A stretch of 64,000 nucleotides of DNA from Paracoccaceae bacterium (lineage in GTDB: Bacteria; Pseudomonadota; Alphaproteobacteria; Rhodobacterales; Rhodobacteraceae): positions 23,851 to 87,850 of the forward strand of contig JAIXPH010000002.1 in NCBI GenBank assembly GCA_027486345.1, in the 5' to 3' direction. Within the stretch, counting starts at the first letter, position 1, and the number at the start of each line of letters is the position of its first letter. The notes beneath the pieces were generated by a model that saw only the letters and a program-made list of their open reading frames with translations, ran no database searches and was not told the DNA's origin. A program made the translations under genes and the position numbers. This document shows positions 36,297-45,422 of this stretch, piece after piece.

Positions 36297-39200
36297 ATGC
36301 CCGATAACAAGGTCGACGGAACCGACGCCTCCGAGAACCTCGCGCCGGGGGTCACCGATGCCCAGGGCGATCAGATCGGCGCGGGCAATGATCTGGTCTA
36401 TGGCAATGGCGGGGCGGACACGATCACGGGCGGCGGCGGGGATGACACCCTCTTTGGCGGTCTGGGGCGCGACTACATCTATGGTGGGACGGGCAACGAT
36501 TATCTGGACGGTGGCGCGGATTACGACTTTTTCTATGGCGGGTCCGGCAATGACACGATCCTGATCTCGCCCATCGGGGAATCCGCCTTTGGCGAGGCCG
36601 ATGCCGATACGTTCATCGTCGTGCCTGACGCGATCGGCTTCATCCCCGGCGGGTCGCTGCACGTGAACGGCGATTCCACGGGCATCGACATGGACACGCT
36701 CGATCTGTCGCAGATGGCGGCGGATGGCTGGACCATCACCTCGACCACGCAGGCGACGGATGGGCAGGACAGCCCCTTCGTGGCCGGGAACGGCGGCTTC
36801 AACGGCACCTTCACCCTGACCAAGGCAGGGTTCCAGAGTTTCATCGTCAATTACGTCGATATCGAATCCTTCAAGCTGACCGCGCCCGGTCCCGTCGATG
36901 GCACGGCCGGATCGGACAGGATGGACCCGGGCTACACAGACGCACAGGGCGACGAGATCGATGGCAGCGATGGCCTGAACGACACGATCCTTGCCGCGGC
37001 AGGCGATGACGTGGTCGATGCCGGTCTGGGGGACGACACGGTCAAGGGCGGTATCGGCAACGATGTGCTGCAAGGCAATGTCGGCAATGACGCGCTGGAG
37101 GGCGAAGGCGGCGCTGACAGCCTTGTCGGCGGTGAAGGGACCGACAGCCTGATCGGCGGCGACGGGTCGGACACGCTGGTGGGCGGCCTCGGGGCGGATA
37201 CGCTGGCCGGCGGGGCGGGCGATGATGATATTGCTTTAAGTGGTGCCGATGTTGTTTCGGGCGGGTCGGGGGATGACGTCTTCGCCCTCGACCCAACCGA
37301 TTCCGCACCGGACATCGCCGCCACGGTGGATGGCGGAACGGATGCGACAGCCGGAGCACCGGATGATGCGGCTAACGGCAACGCGGGCGATGTGCTGGAC
37401 CTGTCCTCGGCCACCGCGCCGTTGACGGTGGTGCTGGGCGCGAACCCGGAAAGCGGCACGGTCAACGGTCTGGATGCTGACGCGGGCACCGACATCACCT
37501 TTGCCGAGATTGAACGGCTGCTGACCGGCTCCGGCAATGACACGCTCGCGGGTGGTGCCGCGACCGGCCCGATCTGGGCCGACACCGGCGCGGGCAACGA
37601 CAGCCTCACCGGCGGCGCGGGCAATGACACGCTGGCGGGCGGCGATGGCGCGGACACGCTCGCGGGCGGGGCGGGCAACGACAGCCTGATCGGCGGCGGG
37701 CAGGATGACATCTTCGTCCTCGCGCCGGGCTTTGGCACCGACATCGTGCTGGGTGGCGAGACCGGTGAGACCGTGGGCGACACGCTCGACGCGCGCCCGC
37801 TGACCGAAGGCGTGGCCGTGACCCTGACCGGGCCGGAGGCGGGCACGCTGACCGGACCCTCGGGCACCGTCGCCTTTGCCGAGATCGAGTCCATTCTCCT
37901 CGGCGCAGGCAATGACACCGTCACCGGGGGCAGCGGCAACGACAGCGTCGATGGCGGCGCGGGCAACGACAGCCTCACCGGCGGCGCGGGCAATGACACG
38001 CTGGCGGGCGGCGACGGCGCGGACACGCTCGCGGGCGGGGCGGGCAACGACAGCCTGATCGGCGGCGCGGGGGATGATGATTTCACCCTCGGCGCGGGCG
38101 ACAGCGCCTTGGGCGGCGCGGGCGATGACGAGTTCCGGATCGACCCCTCCCTGACCGGAACCGCGGGCATCACCGTGGTTGGCGGCGAGACGGCGGAAGA
38201 AGCCGTGATCGACCCGACCAACAATCCCGCCGGACGCATCGGCGACGTGCTGGACCTGCGTGGATTGACCGGCGTGGTGGTGACCTACACCAACCCCGAC
38301 CCGATCACCGGCACCTCCGAGGCCGGGACGGCCACCTATCTGAACGCAAGCGGCCAGCCCGTCACCATTACATTCAGCCAGATCGAGACGGTGCTGCTGG
38401 ACCGTGATGGCATCGTGGATGGCACGGCGGGCGGAGACCTGATGACGCCCACCAGTGGGCCGGGCGGCCTGCCCTATGCCGACGCGCAGGGTGACCAGAT
38501 CGACGGCACCGACGGCATCGCCGACTCGGTCCTCGGGGGTGCTGGCAACGACACCATCGATGCGGGACTCGGGGATGACACCATCGATGCGGGCAGCGGC
38601 GATGACTCTGTCGCCGGTGGCACGGGCAATGACCGGCTGCTGGGCAATGACGGCAATGACACGCTGGCCGGTGGAGATGGCGCCGACAGTCTGGCGGGCG
38701 GGGCCAATGACGACAGCCTGACCGGAGGCATTGGCGGCGACACGCTGGAAGGCGATCTGGGCGAGGACACGCTGCGCGGCGAGGACGGTGCCGACACGCT
38801 GACGGGCAATGCCGGGAATGACAGCCTCGATGGTGGCGCGGGGGATGACTCCGTGATCGGGGGGGACGGGCGGGACACCGTCGATGCCGGTGAAGGGGAT
38901 GATTTCATCAACACCCGCGCCACGGCAGCGCGGCCGGATGCGGGCTTTCCGGGCTTTGGTCCGGTGCCCGCGATCCCGACCGATACCGACCCGACCGACG
39001 ACCGCGACGTGGTCACCGCGGGGGCGGGCAATGACACGATCCTCACCGGAGACGATGCCGACCTGATCGATGCGGGCAGCGGGGACGACACCGTTGACGC
39101 GGGCGTGGACAATGACACCGTGCTGGGCGGCGACGGCGCGGACACCATCACCGGCGGCGAAGGACGCGACAGCCTCGACGGTGGCGTGGGCGATGATGTG

Positions 39201-40454
39201 ATCGACGGGGGTGATCCGACCCTCCCGCAGGCCGATATTGCCGACACGCTGGGCGATCCCTTGACTGGCAACAACGCCGATACATTGTCGGGCGGCGACG
39301 GCGACGACACGTTGCGGGGTGGCGATGACGGCGACATTCTGTTGGGCGGGGCGGACCGAGACCTGCTGGATGGTGGTGTCGATCATGACACGCTGGACGG
39401 GGGCACCGGGGCGGACAGCCTGATCGGCGGTCAGGGCAATGACTCTCTGGTTGGCGGCGCGGGGGATGACACGCTCGACGGCGGCGACGGGCGCGACACG
39501 CTGGTCGGCGGGACCGGCACCGACCGTCTGAACGGCGGGCTGGGCGCGGATGTCTTTGTTGCCGATGGCAGCACGCCGGATGTCATCACCGACTTCGATG
39601 CGGTGACGGGCATCAGCACCGGCCAGTCGGGGGCTGCGCAGGATGACAATGACTTCGTGTCGCTCGCCTCGTTCTACAATGCCGCGAGTTTGGCGGCGTG
39701 GAATGCGGCCAATCCCGGCCAACGCTTTGACTCGGCGCTGGACTTCCTGCGCGCCGATCAGGCCGACGGCATCCTGCAGCAGGCGGGCGGACTGGTTGTG
39801 CAAAGCGGCGGTGCGGCCGTGGCGGCGGCGCTGCTCAACACCGAAAACACCGGCGTCGTCTGCTTCACCCGTGGCACCCGCATCCTGACCGCCGATGGCG
39901 AGCGTCCGATCGAGACGCTGTCCTCCGGTGATCTGGTCCTGACGCTGGACCATGGCTATCAGCCGATCCGCTGGATCGGGTCCACCACGGTTGCGGCAGA
40001 GGGAAAGTGCGCCCCCATCCGGATCGAGGCGGGTGTCTTGGGCAACCACAGCCCGCTGCGCGTCAGTCCCCAGCATCGGATGTTGCTTGCGGGCTGGGAG
40101 GCCGAGTTGCTTTACGACGCGGCCGAGGTGCTCGTGGCGGCCAAGATGCTGGTCAATGATCAGACCATCCGCCGCGATGAGGGTGGCATGGTGGAGTATT
40201 TCCACATGCTCTTCGATGGCCATGAGGTGATCTATGCCGAAGGCGCGGCCTCGGAAAGTTTCCATCCCGGTCAGGTCGGCTGGGGCGCTTTGGCCGAGGA
40301 GGCACGGGCCGAGATCCTGTCGCTGTTCCCGCTGCTGGCAACCGGGGGGCTGGAGGCTTATGGACCCAGCGCCAGACGCGGCCTGACCGCGATGGAAGCC
40401 ACGGTGGCGGCGGAGTTCTTGCTGCGCCCCTGCCCGGCGGCGGCGGCGGAATAA
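36297..40454 (+). CDS. Large RTX-repeat (hemolysin-type Ca-binding GGxGxD) protein with C-terminal Hint (Hedgehog/intein-like) domain
   Basis: 1385-aa ORF carrying dozens of GGxGxDxL/I nonapeptide repeats in three modules. From Cys1189 (TGC at 39861) it reads [21 protein letters not shown]...[20 protein letters not shown], the Hint_2-type domain common in Rhodobacterales. No N-terminal signal peptide. Confidence 0.9.
   Translation: [1385 protein letters not shown]
37587..37698 (+). repeat. Intragenic direct repeat, copy 1 (112 bp)
   Basis: Matches 37956-38067 at 111 of 112 positions; the single difference is GATGGC versus GACGGC. The offset of 369 bp keeps the frame. It encodes [37 protein letters not shown]. 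Confidence 0.9.
37956..38067 (+). repeat. Intragenic direct repeat, copy 2 (112 bp)
   Basis: See copy 1; compared base by base by eye. Confidence 0.9.
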
Positions 40455-40460
40455 GCCCAC

Positions 40461-40517
40461 GGCAGCCCGGGCTTTCCGCCGGGCTGCCCGTCTTGGCCCT
40501 GCGCGCGGGGCCAAGAC
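40461..40517. terminator. Two adjacent GC-rich hairpins between convergent genes
   Basis: GGCAGCCCGG (40461-40470) pairs with CCGGGCTGCC (40479-40488), and GTCTTGGCC (40490-40498) pairs with GGCCAAGAC (40509-40517). They sit between the RTX-Hint stop (40454) and the VWA gene stop (40569). There are no clear U-tracts. Confidence 0.45.
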
Positions 40518-40568
40518 CGGCATTGGTCCAGACGGGCATGGGGCCGCACAAGGACACCCAGCGTCCCC

Positions 40569-41792
40569 TTACCCCAGTCGTCCCGGCAGGGTCACCAGAC
40601 GGCCGAAGGGCGGTGTGGCGGGGGCGTCCGGCACGGCCCAGATCACCGGACAGCGTGGCGCGGGGGGCACGGGCGCATCGAGATCGGTCAGGATCACCAG
40701 AATGGACGGGGTGAGAGTGTCCGCCTTGGCCAGCAGATCGGCGTAATCCGTGCCACCGCCCTGCCGCAGCGGCAGGTCGCGCAGCCCGCCCCAGGCCTGC
40801 GGGTCCAGCCGGTGATGCAGCGACACCGTGGTGTCAAAGGCCAGCAGATGCGCCTCTGCCCCGGTCCGGCGGGCGATGGATTCCGCCTCAGCCATCAGCA
40901 TGTGCAGCGTCAGCCGGTCGATGCTGGACGAGGTGTCCAGCCCGATCACCAGCCGGGGCCGATGGTCCAGCCGCGCCCGGCCCGGCTGGAAGGCGGGTGT
41001 CGGGCCGCCGGTCCGCGCCGCCTCGGCCAGACGGGCGATCCATGGGCGGGCGGGGCGACGCCACGTGTCGCGCGGCCGGTCGGTCAACGCCTGCGCCAAA
41101 AGACCCCGAAGATGCACCTCCCATGGCACGGCGCCGGGCAACAGGTCGGCAAGGATGGCGCCCAAGCGCCCGATCCCCGCGCCCGCCTTGCGCCCGGCCT
41201 CCAGCGCCCGCAGCATCTGGTTGCGCCAATCGGCGGCGGTCTGGGCCGTGCCGTCGGGGTCGGTCTCGCCTGCCGCCACATCCGGGGTGAACCCCCGCGC
41301 CCGGCCCCAGTCCCGCACCCGTCGCGCCCGTGCCGGATCGGCGTGCAGCGCCAGCGCCAGACGGTCGGCATCCCAATCAGTCAGCGCCGCAATGGCGGAG
41401 TCGCAGGCTAGTCCCGCCTCGGCCAGCACCTCGGTCAGCAGGATGGCGGGGCGCGGCAGGGCGTGACCGGCCAGCGCCAACGTTTCGTTCACGATGCCAT
41501 CGGCCGCCAGACCGAACAGCGTGGGGTCAAACTCCGGCCCCAGCCGTTCGGCCAGCGCCGCCGCCCGCGCGGAATGGCGCAAGGCGACATGCAGCACATG
41601 ATGCGCCACGGTGCCCACCTGTTCCGGCAGGCCCAGCGTGTCAAATCCGGGGGCGTAGGTGATCACCTCGCCCGCCGTGCGCGTCGCCTCCCCGTCGCGG
41701 TGGCGGCACCACAGCGACAGGACGGCCAGCGCCGGGTCCACCTCGCCCAGATGCGCCAGTGCACGGTTGGCGCGGCACGGCGCTGCGCTCAT
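40569..41792 (-). CDS. Zincin-like (DUF2201_N-type) + VWA domain protein, HHxxH variant
   Basis: I chose the start at 41792, which forms an ATGA overlap with the upstream AAA+ stop. The N-terminal part has AHHVLHVALRH ... LAADGIVNE. The C-terminal part is a VWA domain with MIDAS residues DTSSS, GGGTD and TDLD. Confidence 0.75.
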   Translation of the reverse strand: MSAAPCRANRALAHLGEVDPALAVLSLWCRHRDGEATRTAGEVITYAPGFDTLGLPEQVGTVAHHVLHVALRHSARAAALAERLGPEFDPTLFGLAADGIVNETLALAGHALPRPAILLTEVLAEAGLACDSAIAALTDWDADRLALALHADPARARRVRDWGRARGFTPDVAAGETDPDGTAQTAADWRNQMLRALEAGRKAGAGIGRLGAILADLLPGAVPWEVHLRGLLAQALTDRPRDTWRRPARPWIARLAEAARTGGPTPAFQPGRARLDHRPRLVIGLDTSSSIDRLTLHMLMAEAESIARRTGAEAHLLAFDTTVSLHHRLDPQAWGGLRDLPLRQGGGTDYADLLAKADTLTPSILVILTDLDAPVPPAPRCPVIWAVPDAPATPPFGRLVTLPGRLG

Positions 41793-42883
41793 GGCAGGCC
41801 CAGCGCCTGACGGTCGCGCGCATAATCGGCATAGGCGGCAGAGGTGGCGAAGACCGCCTCCCACCCCTGCGCCAAGGCCCGCCCGATCAAAAGCTCAAAC
41901 CCGAAGGTCGCCAGTTCCGCAACGGGCAGGCCCGTCACCGGCAGGGTCCGCAGATCGGCAAGGATTTCGATCCCCGCAGGCAAGGTTTCCCGCGTCACCG
42001 CCCCCGTCAGGCCATAGACCAGCGCCGACAGCCCGTGCAGCGAGCGCGGATACATCCTCGCGCGTTCCGCCCGCCCTGCCGCGAGCATCGCCGCGACCTG
42101 CACGGTCGCCGCAATCTCATCCGCCACCAGCGCGAATTCCGCCGCCGGGGCCAGCCCCACCGTCCCCGCGATCATCACCTGCCGCTGTGCGCGGTCGGGG
42201 ATGGCCTGCATGATCCTGCTCACCCGGCTCCAGCTGCGCGGGGTGCAGGCGATCATCTGGCCGCGCCGCAGCGCGTCTTCGGTCGTGTCCAGCAGATCCG
42301 GCCGGGTGCGGATGAAGGCCGCGACAGCGGGATGGATGCCCGCAGGCAAGGCGTAATTCCGTAGCCAGTCTTCCGCATCGGCCTGCACGGTCATGTGGAT
42401 CAGGCGGTCGGACAGGGCGCTGCCCATGTCATAGGCAATCGCGCCATCCTCGATCCGGTTGCCCGCCGCGATGACCATGACCGTATCAGGCAGCCGATGC
42501 CGCCCCACGCGGCGTTCCTGCAACAGCCCATAGACCGTGGGCTGAAGCGAGGGCGCGGCGGCGGTCAATTCATCCAGAAACAGGATGGCCGGGGCATCGC
42601 CATCGGGCAAATCCTCGGGCCGATACCAGACGGTCTTTGCCTGCGCGTGATCGTAATAGGGCAGACCGCGCAGGTCCTGGGGTTCGATGGTGGTCAGGCG
42701 CAGGTCGTAAAGCACGGCACCGATGCGCGCGGCAAGGGTCTGGACCACTTCGGTCTTTCCCACACCGGGGCGGCCATGCAGCATCCATGACGCGGTGAGT
42801 CTGCCCGACCGCTGGGCCTCCCACCCGGCGGTCAGGACGCGCAGCGCCTCTCCGGCAGATACGGTGGCGGCGTTGACGGTCAT
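41789..42883 (-). CDS. MoxR-type AAA+ ATPase
   Basis: 364 aa with Walker A GRPGVGKT, Walker B ILFLDELT, sensor-1 IAAGN and an Arg region (SALSDRLIH). Its start forms an ATGA overlap with the upstream gene. Confidence 0.8.
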   Translation of the reverse strand: MTVNAATVSAGEALRVLTAGWEAQRSGRLTASWMLHGRPGVGKTEVVQTLAARIGAVLYDLRLTTIEPQDLRGLPYYDHAQAKTVWYRPEDLPDGDAPAILFLDELTAAAPSLQPTVYGLLQERRVGRHRLPDTVMVIAAGNRIEDGAIAYDMGSALSDRLIHMTVQADAEDWLRNYALPAGIHPAVAAFIRTRPDLLDTTEDALRRGQMIACTPRSWSRVSRIMQAIPDRAQRQVMIAGTVGLAPAAEFALVADEIAATVQVAAMLAAGRAERARMYPRSLHGLSALVYGLTGAVTRETLPAGIEILADLRTLPVTGLPVAELATFGFELLIGRALAQGWEAVFATSAAYADYARDRQALGLP

Positions 42884-43569
42884 GCGCCCACCGCCTTTGC
42901 CGCCAGTGCCGCCGCCAACCGGGCATGGGCCGAGACCGCCCGCGCCTCTTGGCCGATGTCGCGCAGATACAGGCTGTCGCGGTGGTTGACGGCCAACAGG
43001 TCACGCTCGGTCAGGTCGCGGTCAAACAGGCCCGCCTGCAGGAGGGCGCGATCCTCTCCGGACAACGACAGCAGGCGTGGTTCGGGACGGTCCGTCTGGA
43101 CCGAAACAAAGGTCAGGGGCGGCAGACGCGCCAGTTCGGATTGTTCGATGACCAAGCGCAATTCCCCTTCCATGATGCCCTGCCGGGCGGCGATGCCCCG
43201 CAGACAGGCCCGCGCGCGGAACACCAGCGTATCCAGTCGGCGGGCCGCCTGATCCGGCGTGGCCTGCCGGGCGCGCGCGGCCTTGGTCAGGCGCAAGAGC
43301 CTGAGTTCGACCAGCGCGATCACGATCAACATGATCAGCGGCGCCTGCGAGATGGTTAGCGCCATGTCCCGCCGCATCAGCGGCACCAGCATGAACGGGG
43401 CCAGCGCCAGCATGTAGCGCAGGAACTGGATCTCCGCGATCAGGCGCAGCCACAGGCCGACACCGCCCCGGCGCGGGATCAGCATCGCCCGGCCAAAGAA
43501 TCGCTTCGGCAGGCTGCGCGTCTCCAGCACGCCCCGGTTGACGATGGTCGCATCAGTGATGATCAGCAT
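42880..43569 (-). CDS. Hypothetical membrane protein (two predicted TM helices), first gene of the MoxR/VWA operon
   Basis: 229 aa with hydrophobic segments FLRYMLALAPFMLVPLM and APLIMLIVIALVELRLL, followed by an Arg/Leu/Ala-rich soluble C-terminal half. I recognise no motif. Confidence 0.6.
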   Translation of the reverse strand: MLIITDATIVNRGVLETRSLPKRFFGRAMLIPRRGGVGLWLRLIAEIQFLRYMLALAPFMLVPLMRRDMALTISQAPLIMLIVIALVELRLLRLTKAARARQATPDQAARRLDTLVFRARACLRGIAARQGIMEGELRLVIEQSELARLPPLTFVSVQTDRPEPRLLSLSGEDRALLQAGLFDRDLTERDLLAVNHRDSLYLRDIGQEARAVSAHARLAAALAAKAVGA

Positions 43570-44041
43570 GGCATCCTGTCCGTTTTGCCCAAGCTAGTCC
43601 CCGCGACCCGGATGGCAAACGGCGCGGCGGCCAAGCCTTGTGCGGCCGTCGGAAAGGGCAGCCCGCCTTGCGGCACCGTCAGCGGCGCGGGCACGCGGGC
43701 GAAAGGAAGGTTCGGGCCGCTGGGTCGGCCTGCAAGACAGGGCGGAACCCGACGATTCGTCCGATGCGACGGGTGGGCGTACACCGGTCCCCGCCCCGAT
43801 GGCGCGCCAGAGCCGCCCACCCCCGCCCGTTGGGCCGCAATCCCGCGCATCACCCGGAATGCCACATCGGTCGGGCGGACTGTGTGGCCCAAGCCTGCGG
43901 ACGCTGACAAGAAGGTGTGAAGGTCCAGCTCGCAAGGCCGGTCCGCCAGTCGCCGCACCTGCGCCCCGCCATCCAGCGGCAGGCGCAATGACAAAAGCCC
44001 CAACATCGTTGAGGGTGCCACAATCGCGATCAGGTTTATGT

Positions 44042-44117
<76 letters not shown>

Positions 44118-44230: not shown

Positions 44231-44566
44231 TCAGACTTCCTCTTCGTCGCCTGCGACATCTGCCAGATCGTCGAGCGAGACGTTGTCATCCGCGTCGTCT
44301 TCCAGCAGATCATCATCCAGTTCCGCGTCATCGGCGACGCCGGTTTCCAGCAGATCGTCGTCGGCTTCCAGATCGTCGACCAGAACGTCGTCGTCCTTTT
44401 CCGGCAAGACACGGCTGATGACCGCGGCGGCCATCTTGCGACGGGCAGTTTCGATATCGACCACTTCGCCGGTGTAGGGCGAAACGATCGGCGAGCGGTT
44501 CAGGTCATAAAAGCGCTTCCCGGTCGTCGGGCAAATGCGCTTCGTGCCCCATTCTTCCTTGGGCAT
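44231..44566 (-). CDS. FYDLN_acid (TIGR02300-type) zinc-ribbon protein with acidic tail
   Basis: I chose the start at 44566 (MPKEEWGTKRICPTTGKRFYDLN...). The C-terminal half is an Asp/Glu/Leu-rich acidic repeat region. Confidence 0.8.
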   Translation of the reverse strand: MPKEEWGTKRICPTTGKRFYDLNRSPIVSPYTGEVVDIETARRKMAAAVISRVLPEKDDDVLVDDLEADDDLLETGVADDAELDDDLLEDDADDNVSLDDLADVAGDEEEV

Positions 44567-44723
44567 GTCGGTCCCCTCAAGGCTGGCGGTGTCCAGAATT
44601 GCAGTCGCTTGCCACAAGCATGGGCGGGTGTCAAAGGCTTTCGGTGCCACAACAGTGGCCCTTATCGACTGGCAAGTGTCGTCAGCAATTGGCTATGCTG
44701 CGCCTGATTTGCAAGAGGTTTCG

Positions 44724-45422
44724 ATGCCCGTCCTGCCCGGATCGTCCCCAGACCTGCCCCCGGTCGAGATCACGCTGCGCCGGTCGGCCCGGGCGCGGCG
44801 GTTTTCGCTGCGGGTGTCGCGGCTGGATGGGCGGGTCACGCTGTCCCTGCCGCTGCGCGCGCGCGACTCCGAGGCGATGGCCTTTGCCCGCGCGCAGGAG
44901 CGTTGGATTCGCGACACCCTCGCCCAGATGCCGCGACAGGCGGGGGTGGGTCTGGGTGTGACAGTTCCGGTGGAGGGGCGGTTGCTGACGCTGGTGGCCG
45001 GGCCGGGACGTGGCGTGCGGATCGACGGGGACCGGATGCTTGTGCCCGGCGATCCGGCGCAGGCTGGGGTACGGGCGGGGGCGTTCCTCAAGGCACTGGC
45101 GCGGGAGCGTTTGGTGGCGGCATCGGACCGCTATGCCGCACTGATCGGGCGCAAGGTCACGCGGGTGACGCTGCGGGACACGCGGTCACGCTGGGGGTCC
45201 TGCGCGCATGACGGGGCCTTGATGTATTCGTGGCGGCTGGTGATGGCCCCGCCATCCGTGCTGGATTACGTCGCCGCGCATGAGGTGGCGCATATGCTGG
45301 AGATGAACCACTCCGCCGATTTCTGGGCGGTGGTGGAGCGGCTCTATCCACGCTGGCAGCCGCAGCGCAAATGGCTGCATGATGAGGGTCAGGCGCTGCA
45401 CGCCTATCGCTTCGGGGATTGA
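44724..45422 (+). CDS. YgjP-like (DUF45) metal-dependent hydrolase
   Basis: I chose the start at 44724 (MPVLPGS...). An HEVAHMLEMNH zincin motif lies near the C-terminus. Confidence 0.8.
   Translation: MPVLPGSSPDLPPVEITLRRSARARRFSLRVSRLDGRVTLSLPLRARDSEAMAFARAQERWIRDTLAQMPRQAGVGLGVTVPVEGRLLTLVAGPGRGVRIDGDRMLVPGDPAQAGVRAGAFLKALARERLVAASDRYAALIGRKVTRVTLRDTRSRWGSCAHDGALMYSWRLVMAPPSVLDYVAAHEVAHMLEMNHSADFWAVVERLYPRWQPQRKWLHDEGQALHAYRFGD

Follow-up and report, generated by a model that had tools for sequence, protein, structure and literature searches.

We analyzed a 64,000-nucleotide stretch of DNA from Paracoccaceae bacterium (assembly GCA_027486345.1, contig JAIXPH010000002.1, positions 23,851 to 87,850 of the forward strand), referred to in the following as the window. 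The subject is a set of three adjacent minus-strand genes, called here A, B and C, which encode a protein with a hydrophobic hairpin, an AAA+ ATPase of the MoxR-like type and a protein in which a zincin-like domain is joined to a von Willebrand factor A (VWA) domain. In C and in all its A-linked relatives, the HExxH motif of the zincin-like domain reads HHxxH. The three open reading frames (ORFs) are:

42880–43569, minus strand: gene A, encoding a 229-residue protein of an unclassified family, in which a conserved N-terminal segment is followed by a hydrophobic hairpin of two helices and, at the C-terminus, by an alpha/beta domain
41789–42883, minus strand: gene B, encoding a 364-residue MoxR-like AAA+ ATPase, a homologue of the phage N4 gp24-type ATPases
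40569–41792, minus strand: gene C, starting from the ATG at 41792 and encoding a 407-residue DUF2201 protein

Relatives of A were sought by a scan of one genome per species, from which 80 loci were kept. An alignment of 28 A sequences contained no stretch conserved enough for the locus scan, and closer sequences were used instead. The first-pass annotation of the window had reported three minus-strand ORFs with the boundaries listed above, joined by two ATGA start/stop overlaps, and both overlaps were read in the sequence, at the A/B and B/C junctions. In the related loci, start/stop overlaps of this four-nucleotide kind are possible at 58 of the 78 A/B junctions and at 57 of the 71 B/C junctions, and nearly all of the remaining junctions have a gap of 10 nucleotides or less. 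Because the overlaps recur in related loci, the arrangement of the trio is not due to chance. Judging from these junctions, A, B and C are translationally coupled. The three genes are always found together.

A has relatives in 213 species, and every named one belongs to the Rhodobacterales; carriers include Roseicyclus, Rhodobacter, Tabrizicola, Cypionkella, Gemmobacter, Roseivivax, Rhodosalinus, Palleronia and Marivita. In the kept loci, A is followed by B and C wherever the contig is long enough, and clustering of the ORFs found A, B and C in 77, 77 and 73 loci, respectively. The annotation had proposed the 229-residue protein as a dedicated, conserved partner of the ATPase–VWA pair, which agrees with its position next to the pair in all loci that offer enough sequence. 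The identity of B among related loci is 62–94%. A was absent from the 2.9 million viral contigs scanned, and a viral-contig scan for close relatives of C found none. We read the trio as a self-contained, chromosomally inherited three-protein module specific to the Rhodobacterales. Two loci depart from the usual layout: in one (L074) B–C is inverted relative to A, and in the other (L079) the trio genes are separated by gaps of ≈450–500 nucleotides. Long antisense ORFs also cover the region 40500–43600 (e.g., 40812–41411, 41659–42213 and 42925–43359) and appear "conserved" in dozens of loci. These ORFs are artefacts, which look conserved because they shadow real genes in high-GC DNA.

When compared with Pfam, the C protein matched DUF2201_N (E-value 2.4e-66, 224.6 bits) and the VWA family DUF2201 (2.9e-30, 105.3 bits), both above the cut-off, giving a zincin-like N-terminal domain at residues 6–272 and a VWA domain at residues 281–402. 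C also matched phrog_1314 in PHROGs (E-value 5.9e-34). Its sites of interest are:

41574–41603, minus strand: HHVLHVALRH in the translation, C residues 64–73, the HExxHx4H family motif with Glu65 replaced by His
41043–41057, minus strand: C residues 246–250 in the linker between the zincin-like and VWA domains, the site of an RPxRR motif in the out-group alignment
40923–40937, minus strand: DTSSS, C residues 286–290, the DxSxS element of the MIDAS, the metal ion-dependent adhesion site, whose other residues are T348 and D370

The sequence further reads GGGTD and TDLD. The MIDAS is complete, with D286, S288, S290, T348 and D370 invariant in both the A-linked clade and the out-group. The domain matches and these residues bear out the annotated combination of a zincin-like N-terminus with a MIDAS-bearing VWA domain in the last protein of the trio. 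The HHVLH that the annotation had noted in place of HExxH, at 41589–41603, likewise lies where the translation puts it.

The replacement is not peculiar to the window. HHxxHx4H was found in all 77 A-linked loci, down to 43% identity, and HH[VI]LH in 119 of the 120 closest C homologues listed. All 120 out-group proteins, which were found with a profile of phage and plasmid members, carry HExxHx4H, as do 10 of 10 diverse members of the family, comprising three proteins from N4-like phages and seven from plasmids of Alpha- and Betaproteobacteria, Cyanobacteria, Actinomycetota, Deinococcota, Bacillota and Bacteroidota. Since Glu is present throughout the out-group (130 of 130 members) and HH across the clade, HExxH is the family consensus, as the annotation had assumed, and in the A-linked clade the change from Glu to His is a derived state that has become fixed. 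The annotation had also named three outcomes at odds with its view of the trio: a ubiquitous core cluster of known function, a family consensus other than HExxH, and a 229-residue ORF without linkage to the pair. None of these was what we found.

A column-by-column comparison with the out-group showed that H64, H68, H73, R76, D98 and N102 of C are retained, and that Glu65 is the residue replaced. H64 and H68 are present as putative zinc ligands, while the invariant H73 and D98 are candidates for the third. E103, in the sequence GIVNE, had been put forward as a thermolysin-like third zinc ligand; it was rejected, because E103 is not conserved in the family, whereas N102 and D98 are. The motif RPxRR in the interdomain linker, which is near-invariant in the HExxH members, is lost in the HHxxH clade. 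From this joint loss of RPxRR and the catalytic Glu, it might be that the HExxH ancestors process themselves, or a bound segment, at the linker.

According to a survey of zincins, substituted HExxH sites are common and non-random, with Glu mostly changed to Gln; they are generally taken as inactive, and the roles of the proteins that carry them are unassigned (PMC3650047). The suggestion of the annotation that C acts either as a non-proteolytic scaffold or through altered metal chemistry is a reasonable one, and it is strengthened by the retention of the other conserved residues of the site. His65 is invariant, and therefore its side chain appears to have a role rather than reflecting decay. 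As the site keeps its other conserved residues but lacks the general base, we infer that the zincin-like domain of C is a metal-binding or peptide-binding module and not a conventional peptidase. A structure model of C was generated with AF2 (pLDDT 84). In Foldseek searches, its VWA part matched the VWA domain of CLCA1 (6pyx), NorD in the NorQD complex (9qhe_G, E-value 2.7e-4) and the A3 domain of von Willebrand factor. A sequence search of the PDB with C gave nothing meaningful.

Outside the Rhodobacterales clade, relatives of C lie on phages, on plasmids and on contigs resembling integrative and conjugative elements (ICEs). By tblastn, relatives were found in N4-like phages as "gp25-like" proteins adjoining "gp24-like" AAA ATPases, with 24–30% identity over the C-terminal part. 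Both gp24 and gp25 belong to the core gene set of N4-like phages, and neither has been assigned a function (PMC4193335); the pair is also present in N4-like roseophages. A pair of MoxR and metallopeptidase–vWA proteins was described in jumbo phages by Iyer et al., who proposed a role in virion assembly (PMC7824862). [quoted passage not shown] However, the N4 type keeps HExxH, has no A-type gene and is only ≈24–30% identical, and the trio in the window is chromosomal. In RefSeq phage records (including L085 and L087) and in phrog_1314, the N4 gp25-like proteins are labelled "HNH endonuclease". Pfam searches with three of them returned DUF2201_N and the DUF2201 VWA domain only, and the name looks like a propagated misannotation.

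A tblastn search of plasmids with C gave no match at an E-value of 1e-5; the diverse plasmid members were reached with a phage homologue as the query. On plasmids and ICE-like contigs the gene order is ATPase, then a 288–299-residue protein, then DUF2201, and two-gene pairs in either order also occur. These trios (Burkholderia, Rhodovastum, metagenomic) and pairs (Synechocystis pSYSA) have an orthologous ATPase and a DUF2201 adaptor, B being 35–36% identical to the ATPase partners of plasmid DUF2201 genes, and they often include a clade-specific third gene, as the trio in the window does. They differ in that the third protein lies between the other two genes and is unrelated to A, in that HExxH and RPxRR are kept, and in their setting among conjugation, partition or toxin–antitoxin genes. 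Homology between A and the middle protein of the plasmid trios was considered and rejected (hhalign probability 0.1). The mobile trios (L089 from Burkholderia pBcn842-1, L088 and L095–L097), which are carried by conjugative plasmids and ICE-like contigs, lie near genes for VirB type IV secretion, ParB and zeta toxin, with reverse transcriptases and a giant SNF2-type helicase protein also nearby. Most likely, the B–C pair descends from a pair of ATPase and active peptidase–VWA protein that is common on phages and plasmids, to which the Rhodobacterales clade added A and in which it replaced the Glu.

The middle protein had been annotated as MoxR/AAA_5-like. Its motifs were read directly in the sequence, as follows:

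42752–42775, minus strand: Walker A motif GRPGVGKT, B residues 37–44, conserved as G[RK]PG[VI]GK[TS] in all related loci
42569–42586, minus strand: Walker B motif ILFLDE, B residues 100–105, with LFLDE invariant in related loci

The sensor 1 AAGN and SDRL, in which SDR is the Arg-finger motif, are also present and are kept in all related loci. B passed the Pfam cut-offs for AAA_5 (43.6 bits, cut-off 22), AAA_3 (37.5 bits, cut-off 27) and bpMoxR (33.3 bits, cut-off 27), consistent with the annotation; the generic AAA family was also above its cut-off with a similar score (33.6 bits). B matched phrog_1297 with an E-value of 8e-67, and it adjoins its VWA partner through the four-nucleotide overlap with C, which is conserved in related loci. 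B is an AAA+ ATPase of MoxR-like type whose catalytic motifs are all intact, and its placement within the superfamily can be made with moderate confidence from these matches.

In agreement with the annotation, which had recognised nothing in the first protein, A had no match in Pfam, NCBIfam, PADLOC or PHROGs, nor did 27 of its relatives match Pfam. A collection of 5.8 billion proteins contained 411 homologues, and the 120 listed are all ≈228–229 residues long. An exhaustive HMMER pass over 1.84 billion representatives placed the family in 88 clusters at 50% identity, and therefore the A family is small. Its two hydrophobic segments are:

43372–43440, minus strand: first hydrophobic helix, A residues 44–66, containing R51, with a 19-residue Kyte–Doolittle peak of 1.58 (segment 47–65)
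43294–43362, minus strand: second hydrophobic helix, A residues 70–92, containing E88, with a Kyte–Doolittle peak of 2.33 (segment 69–92)

The two segments are joined by RRDM and flanked on both sides by K/R-rich stretches, and R51 and E88 are invariant among 28 representatives. Hydropathy suggests that A is inserted in the membrane, and together with the K/R-rich flanks it implies an N-in/C-in hairpin topology. Such a hairpin would place both R51 and E88 close to those ends of the helices that face the cytoplasm. In the AF2 model of A (pLDDT 96, pTM 0.89), short N-terminal strands are accompanied by four predicted helices over the hydrophobic part, one long helix and a small domain of alpha/beta type. 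A Foldseek search with this model found no neighbour in the PDB (best E-value 1.6) or among the BFVD viral models (best E-value 0.18), with TM-scores below 0.3, and the soluble domain, as modelled, has no recognisable fold.

Several known systems combine an AAA+ motor with a MIDAS-bearing VWA adaptor as B and C do, among them NorQ/NorD, CbbQ/CbbO, CoxD/CoxE and RavA/ViaA. The VWA domain of C resembles NorD in structure, and the client of NorQD is a membrane protein. Nevertheless, NorD has no zincin-like domain, pairs of the NorQD type are encoded beside their client, whereas no client gene was found linked to the trio, and B matches NorQ-type ATPases at the level of the Pfam family only. In NorQD, the AAA+ hexamer takes a finger of the VWA domain into its pore, and the MIDAS binds acidic residues of the membrane client NorB, being needed for action on NorB and not for binding to NorQ (PMC13036017, PMC9976466). 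In the CLCA proteins, as in C, a single chain carries a zincin-like domain together with a MIDAS-bearing VWA domain, the latter being structurally similar to that of C (6pyx); the CLCA proteins include lineages with conserved, non-random substituted HExxH sites (PMC3650047). They are, however, secreted, eukaryotic-type proteins with no AAA+ partner, and the resemblance to C is one of analogy only.

In light of these comparisons, our preferred explanation, which we hold with moderate confidence, is that the trio is a membrane-associated AAA+/VWA remodelling module in which the zincin domain is no longer a conventional peptidase. By analogy with NorQ/NorD and other MoxR–VWA pairs, B would form a hexameric motor that docks C through the VWA domain. 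The metal in the MIDAS of C would capture an acidic residue on a client, and hydrolysis of ATP by B would then remodel C and the client. A could anchor the machine to the inner membrane on its cytoplasmic side, or could itself be the client or a regulator, while the zincin-like domain would serve as a metal- or peptide-binding module.

Several points weigh against this explanation. No real gene beyond the trio is broadly shared across the ≈77 loci, and no client was identified among them. The Foldseek search with the full-length model of C returned VWA matches only, with none for the zincin-like domain. In principle, the His that has replaced Glu could still serve as a general base. The membrane insertion of A is read from hydropathy only, with a marginal first helix (1.58). 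Finally, the best PDB sequence matches of B are classical AAA domains of the VCP-like type (E-value ≈1e-5), not MoxR structures, so the "MoxR-like" label rests on the Pfam scores and the pairing with a VWA gene.

More tentatively, we suggest a history for the trio. A Rhodobacterales lineage may have domesticated a mobile pair of AAA+ and peptidase–VWA proteins, turned its peptidase site into a His-rich metal site (HHxxHx4H), lost RPxRR and coupled to the pair a membrane hairpin protein of unseen fold, yielding a new ATP-driven machine, tethered to the membrane, for metal handling or protein remodelling, or else a new membrane-acting immunity module. We regard this full sequence of events as a possibility rather than a probability.

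Of the other explanations, the one that survives best is a dedicated metal-cofactor insertion chaperone, resembling NorQD, CoxDE and CobST, for a membrane enzyme encoded elsewhere; HHxxHx4H would hold the metal and A would dock the machine. We consider this unlikely. The known insertion chaperones are usually found in the operon of their client, but no candidate client gene is linked to the trio in the ≈77 loci. The Glu-to-His change does add a potential fourth His ligand to a site with its other residues kept, the invariance of His65 points to a role of the side chain rather than decay, and the VWA domain of C resembles NorD; yet the HExxH out-group has no known role in metal insertion, and nothing here points to any particular bound metal. 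The explanation also draws on the established MoxR–VWA pairs, which insert metals (PMC13036017, PMC9976466), and on the atypical nature of the replacement, since substituted zincins mostly carry Gln (PMC3650047).

The annotation had linked the trio to the MoxR–vWA conflict systems, and a "ternary" anti-phage system of this kind was weighed next. In such a system B and C would set a threshold, and A would be a membrane-disrupting effector released or activated upon infection. Small two-helix membrane proteins are common abortive-infection effectors, and B passes the bpMoxR model. Like the trio, the ternary systems of Kaur et al. (2020) have one conserved gene besides the MoxR–vWA couple. Their third component is VMAP, an inactive STAND NTPase (iSTAND), FtsH or a beta-propeller fused to vWA, and they include variable effector domains (PMC7159879), whereas the trio has neither. 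The link itself was not upheld: A and C had no match in PADLOC-DB 2.0, the matches of B were at the level of the P-loop only (IetA or TRIP13, E-value ≥3e-4 over ≈35 residues), and no defence or mobile genes lie nearby. That B and C have relatives on phages, on plasmids and on ICE-like contigs, that the distribution is limited to 213 species and that the flanks vary between genera would all fit a conflict system, but within genera the flanks are stable housekeeping genes, the architecture is uniform, the B identities of 62–94% suit vertical descent, and A is absent from the viral contigs scanned. Taken together, a conflict system is rather improbable.

It is more improbable still that C is an active metallopeptidase with His65 as the general base, so that the trio would form an ATP-dependent, membrane-associated protease with A as substrate or anchor. 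His can serve as a general base in other hydrolases, and the residues of the site and the surrounding helix are under strong constraint. All 130 out-group members nevertheless keep Glu, the clade has also lost the near-invariant RPxRR linker motif, and substituted HExxH sites are generally regarded as inactive (PMC3650047). Least probable is that the trio is what remains of a domesticated assembly chaperone from a phage or gene-transfer agent, in which the MoxR and peptidase–vWA pair acts in particle assembly: despite the strong matches of B and C to phage families (phrog_1297 and phrog_1314), the gp24/gp25 core of N4-like phages, including roseophages, and the virion-assembly role proposed for the jumbo-phage pair (PMC7824862), C is only 24–30% identical to the phage proteins over its C-terminal part, no phage genes flank the window locus or the annotated related locus, the viral contigs scanned contain no close relatives of A or C, and the clade has lost the catalytic Glu on which proteolytic processing would depend.

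DUF2201 (COG3864) and its AAA+ partners are widespread, belonging to the core of N4-like phages and occurring on many plasmids and chromosomes, and no member has a demonstrated function. The trio provides a natural experiment within this family, in which Glu has become an invariant His, the rest of the conserved site is kept and a membrane partner dedicated to the pair is present. As such, it offers a tractable entry to the role of the zincin domain without cleavage, to the ligand of the MIDAS and to the action of MoxR–VWA pairs at the membrane. A adds to it a protein family that is modelled with confidence and for which no structural relative is known.

The following features surround the trio in the window:

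36297–40454, plus strand: RTX/Hint_2 gene, encoding 1385 residues with 11 matched stretches of RTX calcium-binding repeats and a C-terminal Hint_2 domain, convergent with the trio
43574–43577, minus strand: AGGA ribosome-binding site of A, read in the sequence
43591–43618, minus strand: promoter-like element TTGCCA-N16-TAGCTT, ≈22 nucleotides upstream of the start codon of A
43998–44014, minus strand: terminator-like hairpin with a T-run, following the tRNA gene
44042–44117, minus strand: tRNA-Ala(GGC) gene, the trio lying between this gene and the RTX/Hint_2 gene

The annotation had argued for an accessory system from this location between an RTX–Hint gene and a tRNA gene. The argument did not hold, since neither neighbour is conserved and there is no repeat derived from the tRNA. 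Linkage of RTX–Hint to the trio was seen in none of the related loci, and a tRNA adjoins the trio in only a few, with different tRNAs. A genomic island at the tRNA was rejected, as no direct repeat of the tRNA-Ala 3' end occurs in the 30–44 kb region, where only RTX repeats were found; the 27-nucleotide periodic RTX repeats dominate the repeat search of the window. The tRNA and RTX–Hint neighbours are incidental. Given the hairpin after the tRNA, the tRNA gene and the trio appear to be transcribed as separate units. In L002, a metagenome contig whose gene A is identical, the tRNA 3' end and the sequence downstream of it likewise lie upstream of A.

The other genes flanking the trio in the window encode PutA, two SDRs, a GntR/FCD regulator, a YgjP-like metallopeptidase and a FYDLN_acid protein, and none of the window's flanking genes recurs in other loci. 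In Roseicyclus-type loci, a phosphoglucomutase-family gene is upstream of the trio in 24, and genes for a GMC oxidoreductase and an aldehyde dehydrogenase are each downstream in 23. The flanks are thus stable housekeeping genes within genera and variable between them, and the within-genus stability fits vertical inheritance with ordinary rearrangement rather than residence in a defence island.

The possibility of a regulatory RNA in the interval from the tRNA to A was rejected, as a search of Rfam found the tRNA only. A scan for the sigma-70 consensus did not call the TTGCCA-N16-TAGCTT element, which we take to resemble the alphaproteobacterial sigma-70 consensus with a GCTA-type −10. A TTGCC(A)...(G)CTA block recurs ≈20–55 nucleotides upstream of A in L005–L008 and many other loci, even when the upstream genes differ. 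From its sequence and position, the element would be the operon's own housekeeping-type promoter, although it may instead be the site of a regulator.

Upstream of the tRNA, the FYDLN_acid gene (44231–44650, minus strand) overlaps the longest ORF of the YgjP-like metallopeptidase (44535–45422, plus strand; HEVAHMLEMNH). Because the Pfam match begins well downstream in this ORF, the YgjP-like gene probably has its true start near 44727.

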